Source: a virus (Duplodnaviria; Caudoviricetes). Taken from it: a DNA stretch of 64,000 nt. The notes beneath the pieces were generated by a model. The model searched no databases and had not been told where the DNA came from. It saw only the letters and a list, made by a program, of their open reading frames with translations. Both the position numbers and the translations under genes were made by a program. Where the stretch lies: positions 1 to 64,000 of IMG/VR virus record IMGVR_UViG_3300001580_000006. One strand, given 5' to 3'. Shown here piece after piece: positions 10,326-58,400 of this stretch. Numbering within the stretch: the stretch's first letter is position 1; the number at the start of each line of letters is the position of its first letter.

Positions 10326-11488
10326 TGGATCAAGTAACTAGCATACAGGGCCCCGGAACAATAAGCGGTGCCGAGGAATTAGCAACTGCCCCGATGTCTG
10401 AAAAGCCCGGGGTAGCAAAATCTATTCTCGGCGAGATATATGGGCACCCGGTAAGAAACCTAGCGTATCAATACTACTTAACTCCTTGGAATATACGTCC
10501 AGGGATGAAATGGCACGGTGCGTTTGGTTGGAAGGGTATTGCTGGAACATCCAACAACCCGCTTAACCCAGTAGTGGCTGCTAGGTATGGTGCAGGTAGA
10601 GCCGCAGCAGGAATTACTGGCAAGGTTGGTCTTAGCGGCACCAGTTCATTCTTTAATGCCTTCGCTGGTGGTGGGTTTGCTCAGATCTCAAAACAAATGC
10701 AAGCAACTAGTCCAGCCACAACTGCTGTTTTTAGTGCACTTAGTAAACTGACTGGCGGAACACCCACTTCTCATATTGGCGTGTTTGGCTATGGCTTAAT
10801 GGGCGGGATCAAGCCCGGTGTTATAAAAGGATTTCAAACGGCTGCAACACAGAACTGGGGTAGAGGCCAGATGCGGATGGCTGAAGTATTTGGCCCAGAA
10901 GTAACTGGAGGGTGGACCGGAGTAAACCCAAGCTTAACCTCCTATTTGGAGAAAAACACCGCCAATTTTGTTGGAAACTTTGCTGGTAAGGCTACGGCTC
11001 TTACAGAAAAATATGCATCCAACTGGAATGCAATTAGAACAATCGGTGGCGGAGTGCGCAGCGCGTTTGGCGGCTCATCCACAAGTTTATATGAGAAGTT
11101 GGCTGGCGACGCGGTAAAGAAATTTGGTCTTACTAGGGCGTCCGCTACAGCAGAGGCAACTGCTTTCCTACGCGGCAACGCAATAATGTTTGGGCTAAGA
11201 ACAGCGGCTACCGCCTCTCTAATATATGATATAGGAAAGTTTGCTACAAAGCAAACTTACAAATTAACTAAGTATGCGCTTGAAGGCAGCAGTGCTGCAG
11301 TTGAGGGTATATTATCCCAAGAATGGGGGACTGGCCAACTATCACCTGGGTTTATGGCAGCTAACTCAATGACTGAAAGGCAGAGAGCTCTTAGCGAAAT
11401 CAATCGCTCTTCTATGAATGCTAGAAGCCTACTAGGCAACGAAGCCTCCCTATCTGCTCGTACTTATCTAGGCGGCAGAATTATATGA
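10325..11488 (+). CDS. Gly/Ala-rich protein, candidate internal/ejected virion protein
   Basis: 387 aa, G/A-rich, Cys-free, directly upstream of TerL. Confidence 0.45.
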   Translation: MDQVTSIQGPGTISGAEELATAPMSEKPGVAKSILGEIYGHPVRNLAYQYYLTPWNIRPGMKWHGAFGWKGIAGTSNNPLNPVVAARYGAGRAAAGITGKVGLSGTSSFFNAFAGGGFAQISKQMQATSPATTAVFSALSKLTGGTPTSHIGVFGYGLMGGIKPGVIKGFQTAATQNWGRGQMRMAEVFGPEVTGGWTGVNPSLTSYLEKNTANFVGNFAGKATALTEKYASNWNAIRTIGGGVRSAFGGSSTSLYEKLAGDAVKKFGLTRASATAEATAFLRGNAIMFGLRTAATASLIYDIGKFATKQTYKLTKYALEGSSAAVEGILSQEWGTGQLSPGFMAANSMTERQRALSEINRSSMNARSLLGNEASLSARTYLGGRII

Positions 11489-39488: not shown

Positions 39489-40074
39489 TAGAGGGCAATA
39501 TCAGGCTCAAAGAGGGGCCGGCCAAAACCTAGTAAAGGCGGTGGTCGGCCTTCGCCCTAAGTGCTCAGAGGAAACTAAGGCAAAAATAAGAGCGGCACTA
39601 ACTGGCAAAAGCTTTATTACAGATAGTGGTAGGGCAAGGATACGTGAGGCCAACAAAAGGCGTAAAGTTTCTCCAGAAACTAGGGCTCGGCTAAGCGCAG
39701 CGCTTATTGGAAACAAACGTAGTGCTGGTAAAAACCAAAAGCCGCACTCAACGTATTGTGGCCATAAAAATCACTTCTGGAAAGGTGGAGTTACTATTAT
39801 TAACCACGGGTTAAGACTGGCTGTAGTTGCTACTCACAAGTATGGCATATGGAGATTATCTATTTTTGTTAGAGATAGCTTTATCTGTCAGGATTGTAAG
39901 CGTAAAAATCTGCGCCTACACGCACACCATAAGAAGCATTTCCAGACTATTATTGACGAATACAACATAACCACAGTAGAGCAAGCAATAGCTTGCGAAG
40001 AACTATGGGATATAAACAACGGTATTACACTCTGCAAACGTTGTCACAGAAAGCGACATAATGCGCAACAATGA
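39478..40074 (+). CDS. HNH homing endonuclease, NUMOD3 repeats (family A)
   Basis: CSEETKAKI, SPETRARL; WKGGVT; RDSFICQDC; AHHKK; TLCKRCH. Confidence 0.88.
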   Translation: MADSRGQYQAQRGAGQNLVKAVVGLRPKCSEETKAKIRAALTGKSFITDSGRARIREANKRRKVSPETRARLSAALIGNKRSAGKNQKPHSTYCGHKNHFWKGGVTIINHGLRLAVVATHKYGIWRLSIFVRDSFICQDCKRKNLRLHAHHKKHFQTIIDEYNITTVEQAIACEELWDINNGITLCKRCHRKRHNAQQ

Positions 40075-43000
40075 TAAATAGGGATCCAAATAACGAGCAA
40101 CGGCAAACTAGTAGTAATCTAGTAAAGGCGGTTGCTGGTATAGGTTTTAGCTTAGTAGCCTTCACGCTTCTGGAGCGCCCGCTCAGAGGTGTGGGACTAG
40201 CTTTGTCTCAGAGGGCTGGTCTAGCAATGAAGGGTGCGTCTTCTACTTTAAGCACAGCTTGGAAAGCAGCTGCTAGCGAAGCCGTAGAGATGCCATCTGG
40301 AGTAGCCGGCACGATTGGTAGATCAGCTGCTGGCTGGAGCCGCACTGCAGAAGCGTTGGCCGCCGAGGGGCAAAAAGGCAAATACGTTCTTCCTGGTCCG
40401 GCAAGAGTTCTTGATCACTGGATGCGCGGCGCATCTGCAGAGTACTCTAACCTTAGACAAAGTGCTTCTGGGGCCTATAAATCATTTACATCTGCATGGA
40501 AGCCTGGAGGGGCTGCAGCCGAAGCTGCAACAAGAAATGTACCAGCCGAGCTACGTGAAAGAGCAACGTCTATTGGTAAGTTCAAGGCCTTCTTTGGCAA
40601 TACCAACGATAGGGGTATGCGCTGGGCCGGTGCCGGCCAGAAGTGGTTTGGTCAGTATCTCACAACCTTGCCCTCCTTCTATCTAGCTGAAAAAGCCACT
40701 GGTTTAATAACCAGACGCGAGGGCGAGTCTAAGAAGAGAGCTTTCTGGAATCTTCCAGGGCACGCTTACGATTTTGCCAAGTTTGCAGTTTCGTTTGCCC
40801 CAGGTGACCTTCTATTCCGTGGTGCTGGAAAAGCAATGAGCGCTGCTCTACATGGCGGGGCCTACAAAGTAGGTATGGCAGCCCGCACACCAGAAGGGCA
40901 GAAGATAGCAGGAAGCTTTGCTGGACTAATATCAAAAGCTGGTGACTTTGGATACAGGGTACAGCAGGCATCCAAAGCGTTTAGTGAAGGCTACCACTCA
41001 CACAACTCCTATACGAATTCTGGATCCACTGTTACTAGAGTTGCAGAAAAAGCTGCTAATGTATTTGCTGGTGCGCTGCGTGGGGCTACCAATTTCTTAG
41101 TAAAAGCTTCTGATAGCAGTATACGCCGTAAGTCCCTTTCATCTCAGGCTGCTAGCCGCCTACACGGGGCGTGGACAGAGGCCGCCTCCTTGGGTGGAAG
41201 CACTTCTGCTGCAAACCAGGCCGTAAGAATAGTTGGACGACAGGGTGGCTTATTTGAGTTTGGGCAGGTAAAGAAATATAATATGATGGAGCAGTTGCTT
41301 GGTGTTAAACAGCAGCGTCGCTCAGCAGATGATTTTATAGGGCTAGTCACCAAGGAGTATGGCCAAGGCGGCTTCGCTGATGCCGTGGCAGGGGTATTTA
41401 AGAGTGGAGCAGGTAGACGAAGCGGGTACCACGCCAACTACAGACTTCCAGGCGACTACACCCAAGGCGACCTATCTTGGATTCTACCAGAGAACTTAAA
41501 GAAGGGTGCCGCGTCGGTTCTTGCGTCTGCCTCTATTACAATACCAAAAATAGGGACGATACGCCCATTCCAGTTTATGCGCGTGCACAGCGTCCTTACC
41601 CCAAAACACTATATTGGCGGAGAACGAGACCAATACTTTGCTACGCTTGCCGAGCAGGACCCACGTCTGAAGAAAATAGCGGAAACATTCCACCCTGGCG
41701 ATCCAGCTAGTGTAGCATATAATAAAATAACAAGTGACAGTGGTATATTTTCCGGTGTTCAGGCTGAGCAACTGGGAACTCAGTTCCAGATACTTAAAGG
41801 CTGGAATCCTGGAGTTCTTCACGCAAGTAGAGGCGGCCTTACCGTGGCTGCTGGTGAAAAGTTGTTCTTTGTCAATAGTGGAGGAAAGGCTGCCACTCTT
41901 AGTGGGTTTAAAGCATTTCCAGTACAGGAACACGAACGCCGCATAATGAGCAATCTTATCTTTGGTAAAGCTGAGGATAAGTTTAAGACTACTGCCGAGC
42001 TGTCCGCAGAAAAGAGTTGGAATCCTTTACGTGGTTTGCTCGACGGTATTAATAGAAAGCTAGAGATCGGAAGATACGCCAATAAAGAAATGGCGTTTGG
42101 TGCGCACGCTCTTCCAACCGGATACCGCAATCTAACAGATAGACGATCTATTCTAAATATATTCTCAGCCGTACCTACTGATAATGCTGGCTGGGAAGCA
42201 GCTGTTGAACACTATAGGACTATTGCTGGTAGAACCCAGACTGGGGTTAGATCTAGGTCTGCTTGGTTTATCGAAGATTTAGCAGACTTAGTGCATAACA
42301 AAGAAGTACAAGACATAATAGGCAGTAAGGATGCTGGCCTAAGAAAAGCTATTACCGACGAAGCCGAGGCAGCGCGCTATTTGCGGGAGCTGTCTGTGTC
42401 ACAAACTGGCAAGGCGTCGAACCTAGTTGCAACTAGAGTTGGCTGGCTGGCCCGTGAGTTAAACGCAGATGTAGGAGCAGGAGTAGTATCATCCGGTCAT
42501 CGCGGTCTTAATCAAGGTCAGCTTGTAAGATCTGCGAGCTTATTTGCTGGCATAGAGAACCGCGCAGACAAGGCAGAGATATTTGACCAGCTGCTGTCGC
42601 TTAACAGTTTAGATAGAAGAGCAAAAGATTCTCTGCGTGTTGCCAAATTTGATGCTATGCTAGAGGATTCTCTACAGCAAAGGTTATTAGATCTAAGGGG
42701 TGACTTTACGCCGCAGAATATGCAGCGTCAAGCCTTTGAGGCACACCGCACCATCAAAGAAGCTATGATAGATAGCAACATCTCTGGCTCATTACACAGA
42801 ATGACCAAAGATAGATCTGTCAGCTTAGCGTTTGAAAACTCTAGTACGGCCATGGACTTCCTCAGCGATGAATATCGCAGGGGAAGACCCGGGTTAGCCA
42901 GTGTACTACTAGAGGACCGTGGCGCAACTAGAACAGTAATGGACTGGATAAACCCAACAGCTAGTGAGCAACTTACTAGAACCGGGTTGACCAGCCGTAT

Positions 43001-46000
43001 GTTTCTTGAGCGCTTTACCAACATTCTTGGCTTAAGGTCGGATAATGTTTCCAGCAACGCAGCATTATTTGGTAAGGTATTTACTCATAGAATTCTACCT
43101 ATGGCTGGAGCCATTTATGGGCTCAGAGCATTAGACACGTTCACCGACGCCAATCCTCTATTTGCTGGTACTATGCTAGATGAGGGTATATTTGTTGCTG
43201 CCGGCGAACAGGTTGCTAAGACACACTTGCTATCATCTAGGGTTCTGGATGCATCTGGTTTGACTCATGCTTCTAAGTGGGCAGAGGGTTTAATGCCAGG
43301 CTTTATAAACTCTCCGATGGCCCGCTTTACGCGAACAGTAGGTATGCCTTTGGCTGGGTATGGCCTAGGAATGAAATATGGTGGGCTGCATAGTGCAAAA
43401 ACAGGGCTAATAGCTGGTCTTGCATTAGATGCCACCTTAGGCTTTGGTTTAACCGATCTTACAAAGACACATGGCGAGCTGGTAGATGAATACGCCGGCC
43501 GTACAGAGGTTCCTGTCAAGAAAGGTCGTTGGTGGGAATTCGGAAAGACCCCATATGAAGGCACACAGATACAGTATTTCCGGCCGAATTGGTTTGCTAG
43601 GTTAAAGAGTCAGCATCAGTATACACCAGAAGGATTTGGCACTAAATGGGAATCGCTATTATTCCAACCAATTCCATTTATAGATGCTGCTCCTGGTATG
43701 TTAATAGAGCCAGACTGGTACGCTAGGAAGAACTACTTAACAAGACCGTATCCAGTCACATCAAATCCATTTAGCGAAGCAGCAATAGTAGGGCCTTTGG
43801 CTGGTGCTACCATTGGTAGTGTGTTAAACCCACCAAGCGTAATGCACGGGAGGGAGCTTGAATCAGCGCTAACTAATCCTGGCTCAAACGCCAACATGTT
43901 TGGCGGTACCGGGCTAGGAACTAGCGGTAACTATATGGCCGGCACACCACAAGGTGCACAAATTTCAGGGCCATCTGATTGGCAGCAGACGCTTAGTAGA
44001 CAGTTCTACTACGGCATAACCGAACCAGGTGGTTTATTTGGGTGGGCGGCTTCAAACTTGGCGGGCGGGCAGATGCCGCTAGCAAAACCAAATGAGCTGG
44101 CAAGCGCTACAGCAGCACAATCCCAGATTAAGAGGTTTTGGGATCTGAACCTTGGCGGATTTGGTCTCCTTAGCGAACCAATTCGTAGGCTACTTCCTAG
44201 AGAGCTGGCCGCCATCAACAAGATTAACCCAATAATGAATACAATGGCCGACTGGCTACCAGAGAATATGCAGCGAGGTGATCAGTTTGCTTCCATGCCT
44301 GAGGGATCGTTGCGGCTGCCTGGCACTGGTTATGAGACAATGCGTGCCGTAACGCATGCGTTTCCATCTCGTGAATCCCAGCTTGGCAAATCAATGTCTG
44401 AGATTGTGCAAGGTATGCTTGGTATGCCACAATCTATGTCTGAAGAACAAGAAGAAATAATGTCTGGTGGCACTGAAATTCACAGACAGATACAAGAGGA
44501 GCTAACTAGGCAAAACCTTGCTGTAGCAATAGAACAGAACATATATGACCCGTACCACGATATATCTGGTACAGCTGACTTAATACTAAGATATGGTCGT
44601 GAGCAAGCTGTTGGCGAAATCAAGACAAAATCTTTAGAAGCTATGCAGAAACTGTCGGGTCCGCAACAGTCGCACATGAGCCAGCTCAACTTCTACTTAC
44701 ATACTACAAAGATGCGTCGTGGATTCCTTATTTATGCAGCCAGAGAAGACCCGTCAGTGCGCAAAGTGTACGAGTTCAATTATTCTCGTAATATGTTTGA
44801 GCGTGATATGGCAAAGGTTGAGCAGGCTAGAGCTGCGGCAGCTGATTTGCTGACCACCGTTCCAACAACGCACGGAGCATCCTACTCCCACGCCGACCGT
44901 CTAAAGATTCTCGCTGACGTAGCACCAACCTCTGACCAGTACTACAGAGAATTGATGATGACTACAAAGCAGAGCAAGATGGGGCTAATGTCACCAGAGG
45001 AGCAGTACACATACGAGACTGCGTTAAAGCAGCGCAATAGCCAAATGCGCGGCATGGACTTGTATCCAAATAGGTTCCTTGGGAAGATGATGAGCCCAGA
45101 GGCTACTTATAATCTGCAGTCTGAGAACACTAACATTAAGGCTGCCTCCGAATATAATATAGCCGAACGAGCTATGGGTGCTGCCTGGGAAGGACTTCAG
45201 GCTGTGCCAAACCCGCTATCAACCAAGTTCTTTAACTATCAGACACCCGAACAGGCATATCAGCGAGCTCAGATGTATGGCAATCTGGAGCAATCCTGGG
45301 ATCACCCAGTACGTAGCTTTGTTACACCATATGGTCAAAGGTTTCTTGGTTCTAGCAATCCAGTATCAGGTGCTTGGAGAGGAGGTATGGCTGGCTTTCT
45401 GATGGGCGGTCCTGCCGGCGCTGCACTGTTAGGAAGCATGGGTGCTATGTATGGTGGCGGTTATAGTGCTGTAAAGGCCACTACTGGGTGGTCATACCTG
45501 CCAAGCGAAGTTAAAAAAGAACGTGCTTTAAATCAGACATTTGATAGGCTAGCTTTTGCGAAAGGCATGGTGGACAATCAAATGACGGGCAGCCCAGAGT
45601 CGTTTGAGATGGCGCAAAATACCTATACTGCGTGGAACACTGGTAGGTCTAGCTCAATGGCTAACTTTATGAGAGCTACTCCGCACCAGGAACGACAATT
45701 TATGGGGGCGTTTATTAATACCACCGATCCTGCCGAGCGCAATAGAATATTAAAGATGTTGCCTACTCCAGCCGCCGAGGGCTTAGAGCGTGTATGGAAT
45801 AACCAAGAAGGAGCCAGCTTTGCATCACACTCCGGAGCAGAAGACTATGTCGCCTCCCAAGGCATGATGAACCAAGCAAGAAACTGGCAGGCTTTCACTC
45901 CACAGACTATGCAGGCTACCAAAGTTAAGATGATTAAAAACGAAGGGCTGAAGGTCCAAGACTTTGGTCTTGGCTACGCGTCACAACTATATGGTGTACA

Positions 46001-46256
46001 AAACAACCCAAACGTTCCAGATTCTATGAACCTAAGTGATCCGCTAGGGGTGGGGGCTGCCCCATCGGTGCAGTTTGACTCAGTCCAAATTAAGAGACAA
46101 ATAGAGCAGATGCTTATTAATAGGGGTGCTAGAAGCATACAAGTATCGGTCAATGAAGTATCTGGCGTAGAGGCCAGAGGAACTCTCACTATTAACTGTC
46201 GCCAAGATAGAACACAAGACATGCTATCTGTGTTGAGATCAACGAGCAATGATTAA
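40071..46256 (+). CDS. tape-measure-like/ejected giant virion protein with embedded PD-(D/E)XK nuclease domain
   Basis: 2061 aa, A/G-rich, tape-measure position. GTEIH..E..SGTAD..GEIKT..SQLNFY motifs at about 44466-44830. Confidence 0.7.
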   Translation: MINRDPNNEQRQTSSNLVKAVAGIGFSLVAFTLLERPLRGVGLALSQRAGLAMKGASSTLSTAWKAAASEAVEMPSGVAGTIGRSAAGWSRTAEALAAEGQKGKYVLPGPARVLDHWMRGASAEYSNLRQSASGAYKSFTSAWKPGGAAAEAATRNVPAELRERATSIGKFKAFFGNTNDRGMRWAGAGQKWFGQYLTTLPSFYLAEKATGLITRREGESKKRAFWNLPGHAYDFAKFAVSFAPGDLLFRGAGKAMSAALHGGAYKVGMAARTPEGQKIAGSFAGLISKAGDFGYRVQQASKAFSEGYHSHNSYTNSGSTVTRVAEKAANVFAGALRGATNFLVKASDSSIRRKSLSSQAASRLHGAWTEAASLGGSTSAANQAVRIVGRQGGLFEFGQVKKYNMMEQLLGVKQQRRSADDFIGLVTKEYGQGGFADAVAGVFKSGAGRRSGYHANYRLPGDYTQGDLSWILPENLKKGAASVLASASITIPKIGTIRPFQFMRVHSVLTPKHYIGGERDQYFATLAEQDPRLKKIAETFHPGDPASVAYNKITSDSGIFSGVQAEQLGTQFQILKGWNPGVLHASRGGLTVAAGEKLFFVNSGGKAATLSGFKAFPVQEHERRIMSNLIFGKAEDKFKTTAELSAEKSWNPLRGLLDGINRKLEIGRYANKEMAFGAHALPTGYRNLTDRRSILNIFSAVPTDNAGWEAAVEHYRTIAGRTQTGVRSRSAWFIEDLADLVHNKEVQDIIGSKDAGLRKAITDEAEAARYLRELSVSQTGKASNLVATRVGWLARELNADVGAGVVSSGHRGLNQGQLVRSASLFAGIENRADKAEIFDQLLSLNSLDRRAKDSLRVAKFDAMLEDSLQQRLLDLRGDFTPQNMQRQAFEAHRTIKEAMIDSNISGSLHRMTKDRSVSLAFENSSTAMDFLSDEYRRGRPGLASVLLEDRGATRTVMDWINPTASEQLTRTGLTSRMFLERFTNILGLRSDNVSSNAALFGKVFTHRILPMAGAIYGLRALDTFTDANPLFAGTMLDEGIFVAAGEQVAKTHLLSSRVLDASGLTHASKWAEGLMPGFINSPMARFTRTVGMPLAGYGLGMKYGGLHSAKTGLIAGLALDATLGFGLTDLTKTHGELVDEYAGRTEVPVKKGRWWEFGKTPYEGTQIQYFRPNWFARLKSQHQYTPEGFGTKWESLLFQPIPFIDAAPGMLIEPDWYARKNYLTRPYPVTSNPFSEAAIVGPLAGATIGSVLNPPSVMHGRELESALTNPGSNANMFGGTGLGTSGNYMAGTPQGAQISGPSDWQQTLSRQFYYGITEPGGLFGWAASNLAGGQMPLAKPNELASATAAQSQIKRFWDLNLGGFGLLSEPIRRLLPRELAAINKINPIMNTMADWLPENMQRGDQFASMPEGSLRLPGTGYETMRAVTHAFPSRESQLGKSMSEIVQGMLGMPQSMSEEQEEIMSGGTEIHRQIQEELTRQNLAVAIEQNIYDPYHDISGTADLILRYGREQAVGEIKTKSLEAMQKLSGPQQSHMSQLNFYLHTTKMRRGFLIYAAREDPSVRKVYEFNYSRNMFERDMAKVEQARAAAADLLTTVPTTHGASYSHADRLKILADVAPTSDQYYRELMMTTKQSKMGLMSPEEQYTYETALKQRNSQMRGMDLYPNRFLGKMMSPEATYNLQSENTNIKAASEYNIAERAMGAAWEGLQAVPNPLSTKFFNYQTPEQAYQRAQMYGNLEQSWDHPVRSFVTPYGQRFLGSSNPVSGAWRGGMAGFLMGGPAGAALLGSMGAMYGGGYSAVKATTGWSYLPSEVKKERALNQTFDRLAFAKGMVDNQMTGSPESFEMAQNTYTAWNTGRSSSMANFMRATPHQERQFMGAFINTTDPAERNRILKMLPTPAAEGLERVWNNQEGASFASHSGAEDYVASQGMMNQARNWQAFTPQTMQATKVKMIKNEGLKVQDFGLGYASQLYGVQNNPNVPDSMNLSDPLGVGAAPSVQFDSVQIKRQIEQMLINRGARSIQVSVNEVSGVEARGTLTINCRQDRTQDMLSVLRSTSND

Positions 46257-49200
46257 ATATAGTCAACGAAATCGTACATATCATAAGGACGACAAGAAGC
46301 TTTACCATATAGGCTTCTCTGCTGCTGGGCTTGGCCTAACAGCCTTTAGTGCGTGGTCTGGCTATAAGTACTTTATGCAGAAGTACGCAACCTCTTCCAT
46401 TGGCGTGGCTGGCTTTATTAACCATATGCGCAGCAACGTTACCAACATGGTGAGGCAGACTGTTGCTCCAAGCGGAGCTAAGGTTAGCAAAATAAGGTCC
46501 CCTTATATGATGGCTACTAGAGCGCTGCACCCAGAAATCAATAAATTGCATGATGTCGCCGTCGCCGTCCGCAGTAGAGTAGTGGTGGAGTCTTCTGAAA
46601 AACAACTAAGCAACTACTACTCACAGATTGCTAAGATAGTTAAGAAATACAACCTCAACATGACACTAGATGAAATTCGTACTGTCGTTGAGGAGTCGGC
46701 TGCTAATACACAACGCAACGCTTATAATTATATAAATGTTGGTTGGGAAAGCGTTTCTGTTGCTGATTCAAAGAAGAACGCAGCCAAGAGATTTCTACGA
46801 ACAATCGAAGAGTCAATCGAGGCCCCAAAGGCTAAGTTTAGAATGAATAGATATCGCCTATCTAATTATGATGAAGCAGTTAGAACTGGCGAACCACTAC
46901 AACGTAGTGTAGAATTTAAAAAGCATTGGTGGAGGCAATATAAGGATGAACTCAGCACCACTATACTAGCTGGTAGGCAGTCAATTACCGCCACCTCTAT
47001 TGGCAGAACTGCTGGACTTATATATGACAAGGAGGGCGATAAAGCCATAGGTTCTCTGGCAGAACCATTCCGTGCATCTATTGAGCAAGCCTTGGGGCTA
47101 GCTAAACGCACATCACTTACTGGGCAGTCAGGCACAGAGTTTATAAAGCAATATACTAGTGAGCTAGAGGCTAGGCAGTATGCGTTACGAGGAGTTGTTG
47201 GGTCGAGCATAGAAACTGGCACCAAAGATGGATATAACCTGCAGTCTATTATTAATCGAATGAAATCCAATCTAAATAGTCTGAAGAACTATAGACCAGA
47301 TGGCGTGCCAGTAATTGGCGATTATAACATAGAGGCCGTAGAGATGAAGGATGGCTATCGCTATCTAAAACTTACTATTGACGATAGCCCATATTATTTT
47401 GGCCTAACCAAGAAGAGAGGGTTTGACTTCAAGCGTTCTCCTTTTGCTATGGAGACCGACTTATCGCGTCTTACGTATGGCGCTAAAATGGGTACAACTG
47501 CCTCAGAACTAGAAATACTTAGAGACGTGACTGAGAGATTGAATTCACTTCCAGGCCAAATATTAGGTGAACGAAATAGACTATCTGAGAAGACGGGTCT
47601 TGATAAAGTATTTGACAAGTCCAACCTGCGGCTAAAAGTAAAAGATATATTAAACAGAACGCTGAAGTTTGATAGACATGAGACAGGAAGGGAAGCTACA
47701 AACTTCCAGTTTAATACCCGTGCTATGTCTAGAGCAAACGTTGCCCAAGATTGGTTTGGGCGGGTTATGACCGCACACAGCAACAACCCATCTAGGCTTA
47801 CTGAATCTCTAAAAACTATAATGGAGCTAGCTTCAGATAAGTCTAAGGTGGCTACAATAGATATCGAGACCGACATAAGCTCAAAAGGTAAGCCCATAAC
47901 CAAACTTGCTGTATACAAAGAGGGTGCAGCGCCGCTGGTTCTATACACCGAAGCGTTTGGAAAGCAAAGTGCTGAAGCCTATATGCTAACCCAGGGAGGC
48001 ATGGAAATAAAGAACGCCGGCACTAGAGCAGTATTACAGGTAAGAGACGCCCACTATATGGCTCTTGAGAAAGCAGGAGTTGTTAGCAAAAGCACCACGG
48101 CTATGGCACAACAGGTGCAGGATTATCTAAAAGGTGTTTCGACAGTTACATACCATGGTGGTAAAATCGGCGACATCACCCAGTTGGCGGCTGCAGGAAT
48201 TAACTTACAAGGCAAGTATAAGACAGTTGATAGCTACAAGCTAGCAAAATCGTTTGATTTGGGAAGCAAGTCTCTACAGGCTTTGATGGATCTGCACGTT
48301 ACAGAACAAGAATTTGCAGAGATACAACTACAAGCTGAAAATGGGATAATGAAGCATCTTCCAGGAGAAGTACGTGGAAAAGTGCAAGCACACCTCCACC
48401 AACCTGAAATAGATGCCATGGTTACTCATAAATATATGTTTGGCCGTAAGGGCGTAGTTAACCAAGTATTAACGGAGCTTCTTGGTAGCTCAACATACAC
48501 AAATGCCCAAATTGGGGAACTTAGAGCCGTACTTGGCGAGGGGTTTGCCACTACTGAGCTGCTGGCCAAGATTAGACAAAGGGTTGGAGCAAAGATGGCG
48601 TCGCTGTCATACTTAAGCTCTACCGGTAAGAAACAGAAGGCGCAGACTATACTTAATTTAAGATCACCTATGACTGCGCCACAGGTAACTGCACAGTTTT
48701 TTAAAGACCACCATCCGATAATAGTTAATGAAAAGCTTGCTGGAAGGATGAGAATAACCGGACTATCCTCCGCCTTTTCTATACTTGAGGATGGGTCTAT
48801 TAATGAGTCTCAGGCTAGTCGTCTATATGAAAGACTAGCAAAACCAGGCATGAGCCAGATGTTCACCGGTGATGCAATTAAGTCAGACGTTATGACTATC
48901 ATAGGCCACCCCGGAATGCAGTTAGGCGGTGCTGTTGTTTCTAAGACTGCTGCTAAATCATTGATGCCTGTAGTAGAGCACACTGTAGATTTGGAGCCAG
49001 GCGACTCGCTATCAGGATTTGTTATAGATTATCAAAAGCTAATTAACAAGCCATCACGCACACAAGCCGACGAATTGCGCTTGTCAGATCTTGGTAGAGA
49101 GTTAAAGCGTGGATTTGCTAAGCGCGCCAATATATCAGACGAGGACCTGGTGGCCAACTTTGACAACATCACTTTCGATATTGGAACCAAAGAAGGAGGG

Positions 49201-52194
49201 CTACCGAGGGTATCGCTGCAGACACCGGTTGGTATAGAGGGCAGCTCCATAATTATGCAGCGCGGTAAGTTTACATTATCCCCGGCCAACAAACAGTTTG
49301 ATGCACTTTTCAGATACTCACGGCGCAAATATGGCCACGAGGCAGCACTGGCCGTTGGCGGAGAATTCGGCCGTACAAACTCCATGCAGCTATTTATTGA
49401 GGGAACTGCAATGAACGCAGTTGCCTCTGGTAGAGACTCTACGAGCAGACAGGTCAGGGACAAAACTGCAGCAACTATGAGGTTACTTCGTAAGGTAGAA
49501 AGAAACCCAGATGACCTCGATTCCTACCAGAAACTTCTTCAAACTACTAAGGATCTACGTAAAGAACTAGGCCTGAGATATACTGCTACTAATAATCTAG
49601 GATCGGCGGAAGAGAAGCAGATGCTAAGACAGCACTTCCAGTTACCTGAATCTGATGCTCGTTGGGACAAGATTGTTGATACCTTGGTAAACGATAAGGC
49701 TGGTGAAGGTGTTATTCTAGAGCGTTTTGCGCAGAAGGGTTCGAAGCCGCTATACTACGCGTTGCAGTCGGAGTTATGGAAAACAAAGAGTCCACCGTGG
49801 TTTCAACTTTATGCTAACGAAGGAAACGTTAGGGCTGGTATTAAAATCACCAATGACATGTTGGTTGGTTTGCAAAATACGCACATGGTATCATACTTGA
49901 AAAGCCAGCTGGGGCAGACTAGAGAGTATCGTGAGATAGCCAACCTTAACGACGTTATGCGCAAGATGGGCGTAAGCGCCCGCGGCAACAGTGGCGGAAT
50001 GATGGCTCAACTCAGCACTGCGGCAGAAATGCCAGAGAATGCTGGCTTCTTCCAAGATGTCACTGATAGAATAAATGGTATGATACATCAGGTTAGGGAG
50101 GGCGGTGCCAGGGGCTCTGACATTATTAAAGCACGAAATGAATTGCTCGACGAAATACTGAAGGCCGGCAAGGTTCCAATATATACTGCACCAGGAATTA
50201 AGGTTCCAGTAGTGGTTAGCAATTTGGTAAACCCTGATCCTGTTGGCAACGTCCACCTTGGCGAAGGAGCCAGGACCTTATATAGTGCTATGAGCGAGGC
50301 TATTACTAGCCACAACGGTAGAGTTATTGACTGGGCCGAGAACGCGTCTATGGTACTTCCAAGGGCTCTTAATGAATACGGAGACTGGCTAAAAGATGTA
50401 ATTAAATCCGGTCGTCAGCTTGAGGGATCATACATGCCCGGCTTTGCTGCAAAGCCTATGGCTGATGTAAACTTCTATGATAAGGTAAAGACCGGTCAGT
50501 CGCCATTCACTATTGGTGTTGGAAAGAAAGAATGGAACACTATAGAGAAGCATTTTGGCAACCCAGCAGACCTAAAGTCTTGGCTGTTTCGTTACCCCAC
50601 CACTGGCTCCCCAAGCATTGTAAATTTCGTTCAAGCTGAGGCCGAGTCAGGCATATTTGTAAATCCTGTGCTAGAACTACTAATGAATATAGACACCGAT
50701 GATGATAAAATTTATACATCAATTTACTCTAAGAAACTCGACCAAGAAGCAATTAGTTCACTAGAAAAAGAAATAGCCGGCCTAAGTGGCGACAGCACTA
50801 GATTACCTATTGCAAAGAGGGAACTATTTAACATAAAACGACATATGGGTAGAATGGAGAAGGAGCTTAGTCGTCGCTCCATTACGCAGGCTCAGCAGTA
50901 TAATCACCTAGTCCGTACCTTTGAAAGGTCCAATGCAACCACCGCAGAGGGAATCCTTGCCGAGATGCAGGGAGCATATACGCAATTTGCAGGAAAGGAA
51001 TATAATATACTGCAGACAGTGGCGGCCTCTCGTCTGCCAGTTGTGCCACTGGTTGGTAACGAACTAGGTATGTTTGATACCGAGTCAGGCAGGCTTATAA
51101 CTAAGAGGTTCCAAGGTACCACAAATGCTGCAATATTTGGTGTGTCTAAGTCACACGCCCGGGCACTAAAAAGTATAGCCTCTAGAGCAGGGATGACGGC
51201 TAGTGAAGAGATTGTTAGGGCAGCCGCTGGCTTTGAGGACCCAGTAATAGAGGCATTGCGCACCCAAGGCTTGATTGGGCAATATACCAACGTAATGACT
51301 AATCTTACAGATTTGTACGGTTCTATGCGCAGAAACCCAGAAGCGCGTTGGGGCCTACTAACCTCCTGTAGGTTAGATGGTGAGACTATGGGTGATGCCA
51401 GCAAAAGGTTCAATACTGACATTGAGCTACTTCGTACTATGACAGATCTTCGAGAAGATGTCATAAAGCAAGTGAAGGGTAATGATCAACAGAAGTTAGG
51501 AACCTATCGTCAGATGGTTAATAAGCTGTCTAAAATAGGTACTAGTGAGAAGCTAGCTGAAGGCGGCGAGCCATGGCTCGAAGAATTGGCTGGACAGTTT
51601 GGCCCAAATGCCGAGAAAATGATTGAGGCTATGAATAGAGTCAACCGCGTGCTCTATGCTCATACTGGTGGAGCAGGAGTTAGAGATAAACTATTTGGTC
51701 GCCCTCTATACAACGAACTCGGTGAACGTATGTTTATGAAGGACTTTACAGAATTATCTGCTGGCTCCATTATGGCAAAGAAAGTCGAAGAGCAGGCGTC
51801 TAAGTCGAAACTTAAACTACCCAGAGAGGTAGCTATAGGTTTGGGTGTTCTTGGCCTAGTTAAGTTCTTCTCCCCCAATCAGATGAAGGTGTTGGGTGAA
51901 ATGCCTGGACAAGGCGGAGAGTTGTGGGACTACAGAAGCGGTAAGTCAGAACTACCATTCTTTACCCCAGTAGATGTGCCGCAATATACCTGGGAGTCTG
52001 ATGCCAGGGTATCTGGAATTGGCCTATCGGACCGTTTTAATAAGATAGCGGCATCTATTATACCAAAGATCCGTCGTGGATACGGAGATCACTCTAATGC
52101 CAGAACAGCTAGCAACGTTACTTATGACAATCGTCGACGCCTAAGTAGCCGGTTTGATTCTAAGTCGGTGTGGCAGGACGTCAATAGATTCTAA
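46249..52194 (+). CDS. putative virion single-chain two-barrel RNA polymerase with DEDDh exonuclease domain
   Basis: FRYPTT..IFVNPVLELLMNIDTDDDKI (compare beta' NRxPTLH..HPLVCxxYNADFDGDQM); beta-like motifs; DIET..YHG..GD..HQPEIDA exonuclease. Confidence 0.68.
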   Translation: MIKYSQRNRTYHKDDKKLYHIGFSAAGLGLTAFSAWSGYKYFMQKYATSSIGVAGFINHMRSNVTNMVRQTVAPSGAKVSKIRSPYMMATRALHPEINKLHDVAVAVRSRVVVESSEKQLSNYYSQIAKIVKKYNLNMTLDEIRTVVEESAANTQRNAYNYINVGWESVSVADSKKNAAKRFLRTIEESIEAPKAKFRMNRYRLSNYDEAVRTGEPLQRSVEFKKHWWRQYKDELSTTILAGRQSITATSIGRTAGLIYDKEGDKAIGSLAEPFRASIEQALGLAKRTSLTGQSGTEFIKQYTSELEARQYALRGVVGSSIETGTKDGYNLQSIINRMKSNLNSLKNYRPDGVPVIGDYNIEAVEMKDGYRYLKLTIDDSPYYFGLTKKRGFDFKRSPFAMETDLSRLTYGAKMGTTASELEILRDVTERLNSLPGQILGERNRLSEKTGLDKVFDKSNLRLKVKDILNRTLKFDRHETGREATNFQFNTRAMSRANVAQDWFGRVMTAHSNNPSRLTESLKTIMELASDKSKVATIDIETDISSKGKPITKLAVYKEGAAPLVLYTEAFGKQSAEAYMLTQGGMEIKNAGTRAVLQVRDAHYMALEKAGVVSKSTTAMAQQVQDYLKGVSTVTYHGGKIGDITQLAAAGINLQGKYKTVDSYKLAKSFDLGSKSLQALMDLHVTEQEFAEIQLQAENGIMKHLPGEVRGKVQAHLHQPEIDAMVTHKYMFGRKGVVNQVLTELLGSSTYTNAQIGELRAVLGEGFATTELLAKIRQRVGAKMASLSYLSSTGKKQKAQTILNLRSPMTAPQVTAQFFKDHHPIIVNEKLAGRMRITGLSSAFSILEDGSINESQASRLYERLAKPGMSQMFTGDAIKSDVMTIIGHPGMQLGGAVVSKTAAKSLMPVVEHTVDLEPGDSLSGFVIDYQKLINKPSRTQADELRLSDLGRELKRGFAKRANISDEDLVANFDNITFDIGTKEGGLPRVSLQTPVGIEGSSIIMQRGKFTLSPANKQFDALFRYSRRKYGHEAALAVGGEFGRTNSMQLFIEGTAMNAVASGRDSTSRQVRDKTAATMRLLRKVERNPDDLDSYQKLLQTTKDLRKELGLRYTATNNLGSAEEKQMLRQHFQLPESDARWDKIVDTLVNDKAGEGVILERFAQKGSKPLYYALQSELWKTKSPPWFQLYANEGNVRAGIKITNDMLVGLQNTHMVSYLKSQLGQTREYREIANLNDVMRKMGVSARGNSGGMMAQLSTAAEMPENAGFFQDVTDRINGMIHQVREGGARGSDIIKARNELLDEILKAGKVPIYTAPGIKVPVVVSNLVNPDPVGNVHLGEGARTLYSAMSEAITSHNGRVIDWAENASMVLPRALNEYGDWLKDVIKSGRQLEGSYMPGFAAKPMADVNFYDKVKTGQSPFTIGVGKKEWNTIEKHFGNPADLKSWLFRYPTTGSPSIVNFVQAEAESGIFVNPVLELLMNIDTDDDKIYTSIYSKKLDQEAISSLEKEIAGLSGDSTRLPIAKRELFNIKRHMGRMEKELSRRSITQAQQYNHLVRTFERSNATTAEGILAEMQGAYTQFAGKEYNILQTVAASRLPVVPLVGNELGMFDTESGRLITKRFQGTTNAAIFGVSKSHARALKSIASRAGMTASEEIVRAAAGFEDPVIEALRTQGLIGQYTNVMTNLTDLYGSMRRNPEARWGLLTSCRLDGETMGDASKRFNTDIELLRTMTDLREDVIKQVKGNDQQKLGTYRQMVNKLSKIGTSEKLAEGGEPWLEELAGQFGPNAEKMIEAMNRVNRVLYAHTGGAGVRDKLFGRPLYNELGERMFMKDFTELSAGSIMAKKVEEQASKSKLKLPREVAIGLGVLGLVKFFSPNQMKVLGEMPGQGGELWDYRSGKSELPFFTPVDVPQYTWESDARVSGIGLSDRFNKIAASIIPKIRRGYGDHSNARTASNVTYDNRRRLSSRFDSKSVWQDVNRF

Positions 52195-52233: not shown

Positions 52234-52428
52234 ATGTTGAACATCGTAATTTCTTGTGGGTATGATGGCGATGCTGGGGCTTTAGCCTCAGCGATTGCAG
52301 ACTACATTAGGTCGCAAAGTGGCCAGGACATAACTGTTCGTGTAAATACACTTGATGACCCAAACACCGTGTCCAAGATAGCTGCACTAAACGCAGCACA
52401 ACTAGTTAAACGGAGACCCAATATTTAA
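52234..52428 (+). CDS. small hypothetical protein
   Basis: 64 aa, after the promoter, TAATG-coupled to the next gene. Confidence 0.55.
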   Translation: MLNIVISCGYDGDAGALASAIADYIRSQSGQDITVRVNTLDDPNTVSKIAALNAAQLVKRRPNI

Positions 52429-55400
52429 TGGCATTTAAAGGCAAAGATAGTAGCAACGTACGCTGGGCAAGCCTACATGCAGTTCTAAAAGATAAGCTTA
52501 CTAAGCTCGAAGAACTTGTCAGCAAAGACGTCGATATGCCTCAGTTCCAAATAACTGACGGCCTTCGCACTATTCGCGAGCAGGCAGAGCTGTATGCTAA
52601 GGGCCGCACTAAGCCAGGTACTATAGTAACGTATGCGAAAACCCCACAGGCCCACGGGTTTGGTTTAGCCGTAGACGTAGTTCCACTTAAGGATGGTAAG
52701 AAGGACTACAACAACAAATCCGCTTACGATAAGTTAGCAGCCTATGCAACACAAGTTGGATTAAGATCTGGGCATAATCAGCCGTTTAAGAAGAAAGACG
52801 GATCTCTTTTTTATGACCACCCTCACATAGAGGTGTGGAACTGGAATACATATGTAGATAAAAACGCACAGCTCATCGGTGATGAGTTTGTATTTGACTC
52901 CAACGTACAGCAGAACCTTGATGTATATAGCCAGAATGGATTCTTCACAGACGCTAATTCTACCACTGTTTATGGTCTAGGTGCGTACGGCGACGCCATA
53001 ACATCGAAAGTAGATGTGTTGGTAGAAGATGATGCCTATTTCTATGAGGCTGTATCTAGCGCCAATGCTTATAAGGACGGTGCGTTTAGATTTGGCGATG
53101 TGTGGCTGTCCGTTCCACCAACAACCATAGATATAGCCAGCTTTTCAGCAAACCAAGAAATACCTGCATTTCGTACTCCTGGCAACCCAACTAAGCAGGG
53201 TGATCTTAGGGAGATGCGGTTTGATGTGCAGATGATATTTCCGCACGCCCAGACTATCAACGGCGAGCTAAGACCACTTATTGCACAGTTCTTTGCATCA
53301 CCCATTATTAGTGTTGAGAACCAGTTTGTGCAGATGGCTGCTGCTCCAGACATACAGCCAGCAGAAAGTGAAGTTAACTATGAACTAGAAAAGCAAACTA
53401 GTGCAGCTGACCTTACTGGTGCTAACTTCGCTACGGAGATCGACGCCTGGCAAAAGACGCAGGCAGATAATGCCAAGCTGTTTAGGGAAGGCAAATTTAA
53501 GGAACTAATAGATAAGTTTGACGGTGTGCCCAAATCGGAGAAGGAGCAGGTTGATCGTCTAATAGCCAAAGCCAAGAAAGACAGGAAGGTTCGATATTCT
53601 AGGTATGGGTGGGCGCTCAATGATGAACCACTTTTGTTTTGTTTCAAAGAATTACACATAAATACTGTATCAGGTTTTCCATCAGCTATTCAGGCACACG
53701 CCGTACTAAACTTGTTTAACTCACGCCCATTTTGCAAGCAAGTAGCGTGGCTAAAGGATTGGAGTGACGTCTCTGCACAGCTAACATACGGCGATCAACT
53801 TAAAAGTTGCTTACGTGAGGCTAAGGACGCAAGTACTGTAGAGCCCCCTGTAGTAAATCATGTATCTAGCCCAGAATTCTCAACTCCTTATAAAGACTAT
53901 TACTCTCATTGGCTTATAGAAGGCAAGGCTCTGCGCGAGGCTGATGGGCACACAGTGCCACCACTTAGTTCTAGCTTGAGTTCACCGCTACACCAAACCC
54001 TTGGAATGCTGTATCTAGACGAGTTTGATAATACCAACTTTGTCAATAACATTGTGATGTCTTGGCGAGGCGCGTCAAAAAGTATGCTTCAGTCAGAGCT
54101 GGAAAGAATTCGTAATACCAAAAACCGCCTTGTTAAAATTAAGGCTCAATTGTTAGATTATAGGGCAAAAGACTTTCCTGATATATCTAGTGGTTTTAGG
54201 GATGGTATAGCTGCTCTGTGGAAAACTCCAGCACTGTTAAAGCAATATTTTGATAGAGTGGTAGAAAAAACTGGTGGTCTTGTTTGGATAACAGCCGCAA
54301 CCTTAAAGGGTGATCTTGGGTTTAACAGCAAAGACGCAGAAGATAAATTCAAAAAATACTTTGTCAACACTACCGGCATAACAGCTTATGATTTGTATCA
54401 ATACGTAACTACTAAGGTTGAGGATAAAGACAAGCGCTGGCTTCTTACTAGGCTAACTGATCTCGTACTTCGAAGTAACACCACCCAGGAGCACGCCAAG
54501 ATAATAGATCAGTGTATTGAGCTTTCCAATGAAGCCGATAAACAACTCGGTGTATATAAAGATGGCGCCAGTTCTATCCACAGTATAGACCTATCAGAAT
54601 ACAGCGGCACGACCATATCTGGTATGTCAGCTAGCATAGCAAATAAATTTGCTAGAATACCGCTGTTGTCTGAGTTCATACCTACTTATCAACACATGGG
54701 TAGGTCAAACATTAGTGTTACAATGAGTCTTCAGACAGAAAATCTGGAGATAGTATCTGAGCTGCGCAGGCTAGAACTGGAGACATCTATAGCTCAGCAG
54801 ATGAGAGACCTTATTACGCCAATAGAGTTACAAAAGTTTATTCCAGGAAGTGTAGTCGCTGTTACTGGTAATGCGTTCTTTAGCATGTTAGGTGTACATA
54901 ACGTAGTGGTTGGCAATGTTCAAACCTCCACTGTTCCTAATAGACCAGGACTGTGTAACGTAACTATTGAATTTATTCAAGCAGACTATGTTCTTCACGA
55001 ACACGAGCAAATTCAACCATATAATATACTTCCAGCTAATCTTGTTGCTATCACAGCAAAAAGTATTCTTGATGCCGGTGATACAAAGGTAGTTGGCTGG
55101 CTTAATACGATTAAGAATTCTAAACCTGATTTATACAATCAGTTAGACTGGGAAGTAATGCCAGCATATAATGGGGTATTGGATCTTATTAAAGAATATG
55201 GGCAGCAGATAAATTATGATGTTGTTAATAAACTAACTACTGAGGCTACAGCCACAGCACCGCCATCCACAAAATCTAATGTATTATCTATAAGTGGCAC
55301 AACAAGCGACAATTTTTGGCAGAGTGCCGTAGAAAGAGCAGAACAGGCAACGCCACGCCCATATACTATTGGATCTGAACTTAAGAAAGTAAATACTTTA

Positions 55401-58400
55401 TCTTTTTTAAGTAGGGCCAATATAGTCTTCCTGGTGGTTATGGGGCACATTACCCTTTGGCAGACCATCAGAATTCTTTTAAGCAATAGACAGTATCGTA
55501 CTGATCTTAAGGAGATGTTACAAACATTAGTACCAAATCCTGAAAAGATAGTTAAAATATATGAAGACTCTGAAGTATACATAACCGATAGAGAGCGTGC
55601 GGCACATCAGGGGCGCTGTGCGCTACCAGATATACTACAAATACAAATACCAGGTTCACCGCCTAATAAAGAATTATATACACCAGGTGATTTATACTTC
55701 TATCGTGACTACTACATTAATAAGCAAGTAGTAGACCTAGCTGAGAGTATAATAGAGTGTGAGCATGGCCTACTGACTGAAACCTTCCACGATTTACTGA
55801 CAATTGACCTAGCCAAAACCAAGGATTTGTTGGCTGAGTACCGTGTTAAACTAGAGAGTAGCGCAGCCGATATTAAGGGCCTCGGTGCTACTAACAAACA
55901 GCTATTACTAAAACACGATCAGCTCCTAAAAATGTATAATGACCTAGAAGCAACATATAAGAAGTATGAGGATACTAGAAAACTACCACTGGGAATTAAT
56001 ATAGAAGCTATTGAGGGAAGCACCAATATATCTCCGGCCATGCTATATAAATATCAAGAGCTTCTTATAGGAATGGAGTCCTTTGGTAAAGTAGTGGAGG
56101 CTGTTGAAGCTGGTAAAGAATATAATTATGAGGTTAGTAAACCAAAGCCAGATGCTAATAGACTGAAGATGCTGGAAAAAAGATATAACTTTTTAAGTAC
56201 AAGAATCCTGGCTGGGATGAACAGCATAGACGTTTTGGATAGCACGTTTAATCCAGAGGTTGGCAGTGTTGGCGCGTCAGAGGGCTTGCGCATGATTAGC
56301 AAAACCCTAGGAGCGCTTCCACGAGATGTCGCAGAGACCGAACGGGGTATACTAAATGACGTTAAAGTAGCCATGGCCGCTGATAGCACGTTTTCACTAT
56401 CCAGGGCTTTTCCAGCTGTGAAAATATATCTTATAGAAAAAGATTCTCCTGCATGGATGCTTTTTGATGATTTTTATTCATATAATGCAGTTGTATCTAT
56501 TGATGTTCTTAAAAATGCGTACTCTGCCTCAGAGACCGCTATAATTAGGTTAAGCAACGTTACTAACAACTTGGCCAATACGACATCAAAGAACTATGAA
56601 AGACATGGGTTGCAAGATACAGCATCTGAGCAAACAGTCTTTTCTATTGACCTAAAACCTGGTGCCGATATTGCACTTAAATATGGTTATGAGGCGGACC
56701 CGTCTCAAATGCCATTTAAATTCCGTGGCACCATAGTAGAGGTGTCACCTGGCCCAATTACAGAGATTGTTGCGCAGTCTGCTGGCGCTCAGCTAAATCA
56801 AGTACCTTATCCAGTAAAGGATAAGAAGGCCGGATTGAATAGCACAACCAGATCTCTAGGTAACGTGGCCCTTAGCGTATTGGACGACATGCCAGGAAGA
56901 CTTCGTGGTCTTGGGGGCTGGGGATTAGACCAGGCCATACAAAAGAATGTGGACTCAAACAGATCAGATTCTAAGGAAGAGTGGGCCGAACTTGCACAAA
57001 AGCTGATAGGTATGCCAAGACCAATTGGAGCGTCTAGCAACGTTGGCGAGAATATATTTCTTCCTTTCGGTTTTAGTTTTATACCACTATGGCCCGCTAC
57101 TGAGTCTAAAACGTCCAAAAGAAATTCTGGTAATAATTTTGACTGGGTGTGCTCTGCTGGAAAAACTGGATGGGAACTTCTACAAGATATAGCATTATAT
57201 AATAGAGACTATATAGTTAAAGTGCCTATCTACAACGCCTGGCTAGACCCCAGATCAGTAGACTGTGATCTAAGATATACTGTTTATCTTGGGCCGCGTG
57301 ATGGTGTATATAAAAGCTCAAGCAAATCCACCGAAACCTCTGAAGCCGCCATCAGAAGGATTGTGGACTCGTTTGACACGAATTTTGCTTCTGCAAAGGA
57401 GCAGATGAAAGAACTACCAAAACTACTAAAGGTAGTTGATAAAAGGCTTTCTGCAAAGCAAGCTACAGCCTTACTAATGACTAAAGGTTTTGTACCATTA
57501 GTACACTCTGATAGCCCAGACAACACCAATATTTGGGGAATTGATTTTAGTGGCGCTGTAGACTATTTATACGATAAGCAATTTCTAGTAACGTGTTTGC
57601 ACACTTATGATAAAGATCTTGGCGCCGCCGCAACGTCTGGCGGTGTGTGGAGAGGCTGGGCACATAAGTTGATAAAAGTTTCACCTCCGAATACAATAGA
57701 GGTGTTCCCAGAAGCACTAGATAAAATAAGTGAGCAGATCAAAGAGCAACTCAAAATAGCTGCTAACGTATCAGCATCACTACTAGGCAGCCCAATTCCG
57801 CCCGAACAGAGTGGGCTGACTCACGCTGCTGGTGTGTATGAGCCAATCATAAGAAAGCACCTAGTGGACTCATACCACCACATAATATCCAACGGCCTGG
57901 TGGCCTCATCTAATAATTTCTATAATAGATTGCGTCTAATTTATCCAAATGCGGAACCTATTGGCGAAAGCAAGATGCGTGAGCTTGAGCTAGACCATGA
58001 ATTAAGCCACGACGTTAGGATAGATAAAGCGACTATAGACGCAATAAAATTATATCTTGGTACCATCAATACTGGGCTAAGAGAGGCGGTAGTGTCTATT
58101 GATGACGACATTAACCCAGATCAAATTAAAGAGCAGATATTGTGGTATGGCAATATCGATACTAATTTTTATGATAGCCCGTGGGTGCTTAGAGACAGTA
58201 GCCCATCTGGATACAACGTTCCTGAGCTGCACGAGGAGCAACTAACGCGATTGAAAGAGGACGGAGGTGTTGCTAAACCATGGTTTGTTGCAGCACAAGC
58301 TCTAGCCAAGCTTGCAGCAAGGATGTACTCTGGCTCACTGGTACTAGTTGGCAATCCAAACATAGAACCATTTGATGAGGTATACCTGACTGATGTGGCA

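Follow-up and report, generated by a model that had tools for sequence, protein, structure and literature searches.

A putative, extremely diverged DEDDh exonuclease domain in the middle giant tail-module protein of a 223-kb myovirus

The stretch of DNA considered here (the window) covers positions 1 to 64,000 of IMG/VR virus record IMGVR_UViG_3300001580_000006 (Caudoviricetes), which is 223,464 bp long, and the subject is the product of a single gene, g2, which is the middle one of three giant genes in the tail module and encodes a protein, P0001, of 1981 amino acids (aa). An earlier note, made from the sequence without database searches, had proposed that this protein carries a DEDDh (DnaQ/RNase T-like) 3'-5' exonuclease fused in front of the barrels of a two-barrel RNA polymerase (RNAP). 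Comparison with related phages makes it likely that aa ~511-745 of P0001 are homologous to an exonuclease domain that is found repeatedly in the g2 family; to the fuller proposal, that these residues form an extremely diverged and probably still catalytic DEDDh domain of the DnaQ/PolC type, derived from an old and recurrent module of g2 proteins, we would give roughly an even chance. The domain assignment is probable and rests on the family context rather than on the sequence signal of P0001 itself, and within this phage taken alone the exonuclease is weakly supported.

Motifs, synteny and the g2 family

All of the motif strings quoted in the earlier note are present in frame, and where it placed them, in the open reading frame (ORF) of P0001 (46249-52194, + strand). 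Together they supply a candidate catalytic set consisting of D538, E540, D642, H717 and D722, in which the DxE of ExoI, the Asp of ExoII and the Hx4D of ExoIII follow one another in the right order and at compatible spacings. The features of the region are listed below; the bounds given for the domain as a whole take in an upstream helix that is kept across the g2 family, while the block scores are those of a “chain scan”, in which five DEDDh blocks built from true members were run over the whole 1981-aa length of P0001.

47779..48483, + strand: putative DEDDh (DnaQ-like) exonuclease domain, aa ~511-745 (from family hidden Markov models (HMMs), MAFFT alignment A3 and mafft --add controls)
47848..47880, + strand: ExoI block VATIDIETDIS, of which VATIDIETD is aa 534-542, with D538 and E540 (chain scan block A, score 9.0; paired with DxET by the family HMM and by hhalign)
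47896..47922, + strand: block ITKLAVYKE, resembling strand beta2 (chain scan block B, 4.9)
48145..48186, + strand: ExoII block VTYHGGKIGDITQL, of which TYHGGKIGD is aa 634-642, with D642 (placed in the ExoII column by A3 and by mafft --add)
48217..48285, + strand: block YKTVDSYKLAKSFD, similar to strand beta5 with the helix that comes after it (TVDSYKLAK, aa 659-667), followed by SKSLQAL (aa 673-679) (chain scan block D, 6.9)
48394..48438, + strand: ExoIII block LHQPEIDAMVTHKYM, of which HQPEIDA is aa 717-723, with H717, D722 and T726 (chain scan block E, 8.6; paired by the HMMs with the family pattern HxAxxD...T)

The best chain found anywhere in P0001 independently includes the same ExoI, beta2, beta5 and ExoIII blocks that the earlier note had picked out, four of its five, the exception being ExoII. 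The resemblance to DEDDh proteins of the DnaQ/PolC type (PF00929; E. coli DnaQ, RNase T, ExoX, Orn and ExoI) extends beyond the order and rough spacing of the motifs to the strand-like hydrophobic context of ExoI and to the “xxD..LA+” and “SL..L” segments before ExoIII; the second of these is SKSLQAL, and the block that contains it parallels segments both of E. coli DnaQ and of the g2 family. Unlike these proteins, P0001 has a spacing of 104 aa between ExoI and ExoII (91 in DnaQ), lacks the Asn and the aromatic residue at ExoII, matches neither PF00929 nor any other curated model, and carries the domain inside a chain of 1981 aa.

Much of the argument depends on what occupies the same position in other phages, and here the two giant neighbours of g2 provide the anchor.

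40071..46256, + strand: g1 (P0003, 2061 aa), orthologue of gp145 of phage 0305phi8-36 (phmmer E 8.5e-67)
46249..52194, + strand: g2 (P0001, 1981 aa), middle giant gene of the tail module (from the ORF list, its translation and synteny)
52428..59099, + strand: g3 (P0004, 2223 aa), hub-type giant, orthologue of gp147 of 0305phi8-36 (PHROG and tblastn matches)

Searches with g3 and with the sheath protein led to Moorella phage MTATph1 and to Bacillus phages 0305phi8-36, Edson, WH1 and KLEB27-3, in all of which the same giant trio lies between the tail chaperones and the baseplate. The orthology of g1 to gp145 and its counterparts is clear (phmmer E 1e-27 to 8.5e-67), as is that of g3 to gp147 and its counterparts (phmmer E 1e-18 to 1e-34), and orthologues of the two flank g2 in 0305phi8-36, MTATph1, Edson, KLEB27-3 and one contig of GCA_029972165.1. 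By its position, P0001 is the orthologue of gp146 of 0305phi8-36, which is annotated as a “hypothetical tape measure protein”.

Further loci were gathered by means of the conserved C-terminus of g1 (alignment A1), 80 of them from IMG/VR and 80 from metagenomes. Across these 160 loci, family HMMs and the five-block chain scan identify a DnaQ/PolC-like DEDDh domain in about 35 distinct g2 ORFs. The motifs are of textbook quality in the Moorella g2 and in a 71%-identical relative (on the GCA_029972165.1 contig, where it is part of the same trio); the Moorella g2 (25.5 bits) and that of locus L052 (36.3 bits) pass the Pfam RNase_T threshold, and the NCBIfam models nearest to the canonical members are those of PolC/DnaQ proofreading exonucleases. 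ExoI, ExoII and ExoIII are likewise obvious near the N-termini of the g2 proteins of KLEB27-3 (gp034), Edson and WH1 (gp095), which have a clear DEDDh domain at aa ~70-400 and are annotated only as structural or hypothetical.

The relatives nearest to the present phage, as judged by g1 similarity, are loci L016, L017/18 and L019, in which the domain lies at aa ~491-825 and ExoI starts at aa 529, 521 and 519, as compared with aa 534 in P0001. Against a 16-member profile from which they had been left out, the scores are 11.9 bits for L019 and 10.0 bits for L017, and no shuffle out of 1000 attains either of them; taking the six closest g1 relatives together, five carry the domain in their g2. P0001, L016 and L019 share the form H-x4-D-x4-H at ExoIII, and all five catalytic residues are kept in these three proteins in spite of an identity of only ~15%, which suggests selection on the active site.

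Alignment provides a more direct comparison. An unsupervised MAFFT alignment (A3) brings all five candidate residues of P0001 into the columns where the family conserves its catalytic residues, including the near-invariant ExoII column that D642 occupies. P0001 also satisfies all five columns when placed in the family alignment using mafft --add; among control sequences placed likewise, 2 of 850 shuffles and 1 of 397 natural windows (261 aa each, taken from exonuclease-free giant proteins) did so, i.e. 3 of 1247 controls or ~0.25%.

Weighing the assignment

A considerable number of observations count against this assignment, and they are best considered together. The domain HMM scan that the earlier note had put forward as a check is negative for P0001: neither the whole protein nor its exonuclease region has a match in Pfam, PHROGs or NCBIfam, Pfam RNase_T (PF00929) matches neither P0001 nor its residues 500-800 at E<=1, and at E<=10 there is no match to this model anywhere in the 223-kb genome. 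Sequence searches of the PDB with P0001 and with the exonuclease region came back empty, and the single match from an exhaustive phmmer search of 1.84 billion representatives with aa 515-765 was a repeat-protein artefact. Between P0001 and the other g2 proteins, the nearest included, there is no detectable pairwise or profile similarity; HMMs built either from five E. coli DEDDh proteins together with Moorella-type sequences or from four g2 members score P0001 much as they score shuffles, hhalign of P0001 against the family gives E 0.078, and AlphaFold2 models of the region are of low confidence (predicted local distance difference test score, pLDDT, 39.0 from the single sequence and 39.5 from a 17-sequence family alignment). 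In the chain scan P0001 reaches 27.7, against a shuffle mean of 19.6 (standard deviation 3.7), a value attained by 29 of 1000 shuffles (p ~0.03); the ExoII block is rated poorly (score -1.6) and is set at aa 627 rather than 633. The ExoII context itself (HGGKIGD) is degenerate, in that neither the usual Asn nor an aromatic residue precedes D642, and that of ExoIII is atypical, with Pro-Glu after H717 where Ala-Leu is usual. Finally, catalytic residues have been lost in some members of the family, showing that the domain can persist without activity.

The Pfam result is, however, only weak evidence against a domain, because Pfam also misses the clear exonuclease domains of the Edson, WH1 and KLEB27-3 g2 proteins. 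Other searches for relatives of P0001 were equally unproductive: none was found by tblastn and megablast against phage records, by word-indexed homologue searches with the whole protein or with aa 1300-1700, by scans of IMG/VR and metagenomes, by BLASTP against 0305phi8-36 gp145 and gp146 and the Moorella g2, by phmmer against all ORFs of the 160 related loci, or by comparison with a profile made from L016 and L019, the two nearest g2 proteins. The full-length profile of that pair found nothing relevant in the PDB, a scan with its alignment matched only the two contigs from which it came, and a scan of IMG/VR and metagenomes with the g1 C-terminus as a single sequence gave no result. Feature neighbours in the ESM Atlas offer a lead and nothing firmer; those that have names all belong to clusters of viral 3'-5' exonucleases or of the RNase H clan (scores 0.84-0.88).

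One explanation for so much silence would be that the resemblance is due to chance, the region being unrelated to exonucleases and belonging, for instance, to a mostly helical tape-measure or ejection protein with an acid-rich chain of 1981 aa. The failure of general HMMs, phmmer and the PDB searches to offer any support is what this would predict, as are the low-confidence models (pLDDT ~39) and the behaviour of small-family HMMs, which stay at shuffle level. The chain-scan p-value of ~0.03 points the same way, as does the fact that P0001 is equalled by several natural proteins lacking the domain; true members left out of the blocks lie far above it (z = 6.7 to 10.6). It is harder to see why, if chance were responsible, the best chain should be located just where the nearest relatives have an HMM-supported domain, or why significance should improve as the family profile grows: a 16-sequence HMM gives P0001 1.7 bits (94 of 1000 shuffles, not significant), a 19-sequence HMM gives 4.6 bits (25 of 2000 shuffles), its local alignments being in register at ExoI, together with the helix upstream of it, and at ExoIII, and a 34-sequence HMM gives 7.5 bits (7 of 3000 shuffles), which is still marginal and aligns cleanly at ExoIII only. 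Taken with the agreement at five of five catalytic columns, set against ~0.25% of controls, and with the presence of the domain in the g2 of five of the six closest g1 relatives, this makes a chance resemblance distinctly unlikely in our view.

A subtler alternative is that the region is indeed homologous to the g2 exonuclease and is catalytically dead, surviving as a structural or nucleic-acid-binding remnant within a giant tail or ejection protein. Loss of catalytic residues is evidently tolerated in this family: in L017 the first three catalytic columns are occupied by Ala, Gln and Glu, and gp146 of 0305phi8-36, which contains a family exonuclease-like domain at aa 1195-1606 (not so annotated) with a strong ExoI (MTYLDIETTGL, at aa 1219), has lost the ExoIII His. 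The extreme divergence of P0001 and its degenerate ExoII and ExoIII contexts would fit the same description. What such a remnant would not readily account for is the retention of all five residues in P0001, L016 and L019 at ~15% identity, for which it is difficult to find a cause other than selection on the active site; we consider it rather unlikely that the domain is dead. The DEDDh (DnaQ/RNase T-like) reading of the earlier note draws its support indirectly, from synteny, from the domain at the same position in relatives and from the family profile and alignment tests, and receives none from the domain HMM scans.

The polymerase-type motif and a possible mechanism

The other half of the earlier proposal concerned the part of the chain downstream of the exonuclease.

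50590..50706, + strand: beta' double-psi beta-barrel-like motif RYPTT...NIDTDDD, aa 1448-1486, with R1448, P1450, D1482, D1484 and D1486 (from a regex survey, a g2 HMM and alignment A5)

This motif lies 494 aa from the C-terminus of P0001. Patterns of the type R[YF]P...(30-45 aa)...DxDGD are found in the g2 of L016, L019, L031, L037, L038, L042, L070, L092, L093, KLEB27-3 and Edson/WH1; in several g2 proteins the polymerase-type motif is 464-520 aa from the C-terminus, and in KLEB27-3, Edson and WH1 it takes the form RYPT...DYDGD or DHDGD, ~500 aa from it. A seven-member HMM of the motif region, made with P0001 excluded, aligns P0001 exactly on the motif (4.9 bits, 1 of 1000 shuffles), and in a 12-sequence g2 alignment (A5) the Arg, the Pro and the three Asp residues are the sole invariant columns; the DTDDD of P0001 has Asp where the family has Gly. 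Run against the PDB, the A5 profile picks out the catalytic loops of RNAPs, with E-values of 6e-4 for RPB1 of African swine fever virus, 0.0018 for bacterial beta', 0.028 for the phiKZ RNAP and 0.045 for the catalytic loop of the P23-45 “tape tail measure protein”. The claim that the exonuclease stands in front of polymerase barrels thus holds at the level of the motif, R1448, P1450 and D1482/D1484/D1486 falling on the invariant RxP...DxDxD of g2 proteins and the profile matching RNAP beta'/RPB1 loops. Pfam models for RNAP beta, beta', YonO/RdRP (RNA-dependent RNA polymerase) and T7-type enzymes have no match anywhere in the 223-kb genome, so that if the g2 motif truly belongs to a polymerase it would be the sole one that this phage encodes.

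As for co-occurrence in homologues, which the earlier note had suggested examining, at least 17 distinct g2 ORFs combine an exonuclease and RxP...DxDGD in one chain, the exonuclease coming first in every case, while an intact exonuclease occurs without the polymerase motif in the g2 of the Moorella/GCA type, of L052 and of L022. The stronger idea that g2 proteins of this lineage always pair the two had accordingly to be rejected, several of them having the exonuclease only.

These facts bear on whether the exonuclease serves as a partner dedicated to the polymerase in its own chain, for proofreading or for the trimming of transcripts, as opposed to an independent injected nuclease. The fixed order of the two elements in so many single polypeptides is what one would expect of such a partner, and viral DEDDh domains do serve polymerases elsewhere, coronavirus nsp14 ExoN being an example. 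On the other hand, an exonuclease without a polymerase motif in relatives argues against a role that depends strictly on a polymerase in the same chain, and among relatives with a name the nearest are PolC/DnaQ-type exonucleases that proofread DNA; on balance a dedicated partnership seems unlikely. More doubtful still is the most far-reaching version of the proposal, according to which the g2 giants would combine a tail-delivered two-barrel polymerase with a DnaQ-type exonuclease, making them the first two-barrel RNAPs with a proofreading or 3'-end nuclease of their own, with P0001 as a functional if extremely diverged instance that would also be the sole polymerase of its phage. Were the two paired in this way, there would be a parallel, by analogy, with coronavirus nsp14 and RdRp, or with the DP2 and DP1 subunits of archaeal PolD.

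To return to the preferred reading, that of a diverged and probably still active DEDDh domain, what the analysis shows directly is the motifs, the synteny, the domain and its position in the family as a whole, and the family's likeness to RNAP active sites; we infer rather than observe the fold, activity, substrate, packaging and ejection of P0001, and the following scheme is to be taken in that spirit. g2 would be built into the tail where the tape measure lies, and ejection would carry it into the cell along with the DNA. D538, E540, D642 and D722 would hold two Mg2+ ions, with H717 acting as general base, and nucleotides would be removed from free 3' ends. Because the same chain carries a polymerase-type motif (D1482/D1484/D1486, 750-950 residues downstream), as in the P23-45 virion RNAP, these ends would be those of DNA or of nascent RNA, acted on at the site of entry in the first minutes after infection begins.

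If correct, this would mean that in the 0305phi8-36 lineage of large phages with contractile tails the protein occupying the tail tube is loaded with nucleic-acid enzymes. The tape-measure-fused polymerase, so far a feature only of the Thermus siphovirus P23-45, would then extend to a different and widespread group of phages, and would gain an exonuclease as partner, of which no description was found in the literature searched. It would also give some measure of the rate of evolution involved: the flanking giants can still be aligned at E 1e-18 to 1e-67, and g2 keeps little beyond its catalytic residues and domain order, which is why standard annotation is blind to the domains of g2. The gain from the window alone is modest, since it contributes one very diverged family member with marginal statistics; KLEB27-3, Edson and WH1, being cultivated Bacillus jumbo phages, are usable experimental models for g2.

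Known systems and genome setting

The closest precedent is gp96 of Thermus phage P23-45, a virion two-barrel RNAP fused to the tape measure (Chaban et al. 2024, PMC10770324; PDB 8H2M/8H2N). It too is a giant protein at the tape-measure position with a DxDGD-type motif and otherwise no detectable RNAP similarity, and it was found in a comparable way, by a motif search in virion proteins (PMC10770324). There are also clear differences. P23-45 is a siphovirus in which the polymerase occupies the N-terminus of a 5002-aa protein, whereas g2 belongs to a large myovirus and has its motif ~500 aa from the C-terminus; moreover P23-45 has DFDGD where P0001 has DTDDD, and the polymerase of g2 is a putative one, recognised by its motif. 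The paper on P23-45 gp96 makes no mention of an exonuclease (PMC10770324).

0305phi8-36 gp146 (Thomas et al. 2007; Hardies et al. 2007) has the same gene position as g2, between the orthologues of g1 (gp145) and g3 (gp147), and is known to diverge very fast, only its last 60 residues aligning with its own relatives (Hardies et al. 2007, PMC2147016). Unlike P0001 it has no RxP...DxDGD, and its exonuclease is a degenerate one in which the ExoIII His is not conserved. A YonO-like RNAP, orf99, is encoded separately by 0305phi8-36 (PMC2147016, PMC7824862) and is the sole enzyme listed for that phage in a survey of jumbo phages (PMC7824862); in contrast, the present 223-kb genome has no family match for YonO/RdRP, beta, beta' or T7-type enzymes.

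Single-chain two-barrel RNAPs known mainly by DxDxD also include YonO and phi14:2 gp66 of the crAss-like phages, in which such an RNAP lies within a block of giant virion genes (in part after PMC7824862). P0001 differs from both in having no sequence match to solved structures and in coming from a different phage lineage. To our knowledge neither phi14:2 gp66 nor YonO has an exonuclease domain, and the papers searched revealed none. A literature search for exonuclease domains in combination with two-barrel polymerases or with tape measure proteins turned up nothing relevant, and we found no published description of the pairing of an exonuclease with an RNA-polymerase-type motif that the sequences of these tail giants suggest.

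Returning to the window, its + strand carries a myovirus structural module comprising the large terminase, portal, major capsid and 1223-aa sheath genes; downstream of the sheath, tube and chaperone-sized genes come the three giants, and after them the baseplate. The start of g2 overlaps the end of g1 by 8 nucleotides (46249-46256), and a 64-aa ORF lies in the gap between g2 and g3 (52234-52428). Coming after the tail chaperones and before the hub, g2 occupies the position of a tape measure, although g1 is an equally good candidate for the tail-length ruler. According to their record annotations, gp146 is a virion protein identified by mass spectrometry, WH1 gp095 a virion structural protein and KLEB27-3 gp034 a structural protein. 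One further feature of P0001 corresponds to a hydrophobic helix that other g2 proteins have ~110-120 aa from their C-terminus:

51766..51882, + strand: C-terminal hydrophobic helix with FFSPN (the C-terminal family HMM is weak here, 53 of 2000 shuffles reaching its score)

A few additional observations concern the arrangement of these genes. In L054/L094 (ORF 7700-12643) an exonuclease is found at the N-terminus of a g1-like ORF (FHVLDVETTGL, at aa 17) and not in g2. In the isolated phage MTATph1 (L002, 15513-22869) g2 is split: CDS0027 (1309 aa) corresponds to residues 69-1195 of an intact 1513-aa relative and CDS0031 (313 aa) to its residues 1202-1513 (E 3e-139), and between the two lie an annotated transposase gene and a 252-aa ORF.

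The giant neighbours have domains of their own. At aa ~1438-1592, g1 has a PD-(D/E)XK/Cas4-RecB-like nuclease region (PHROG 1706, E 7e-17; PHROG 2506 and 298, “exonuclease”), so that g1 and g2 are consecutive giant tail proteins with a nuclease-type domain in each. The N-terminus of g3 (aa ~14-147) resembles an M15 L-Ala-D-Glu (cell-wall) peptidase, and its hub-type regions are common to 0305phi8-36 gp147 and to the g3 proteins of Edson, KLEB27-3 and Moorella.

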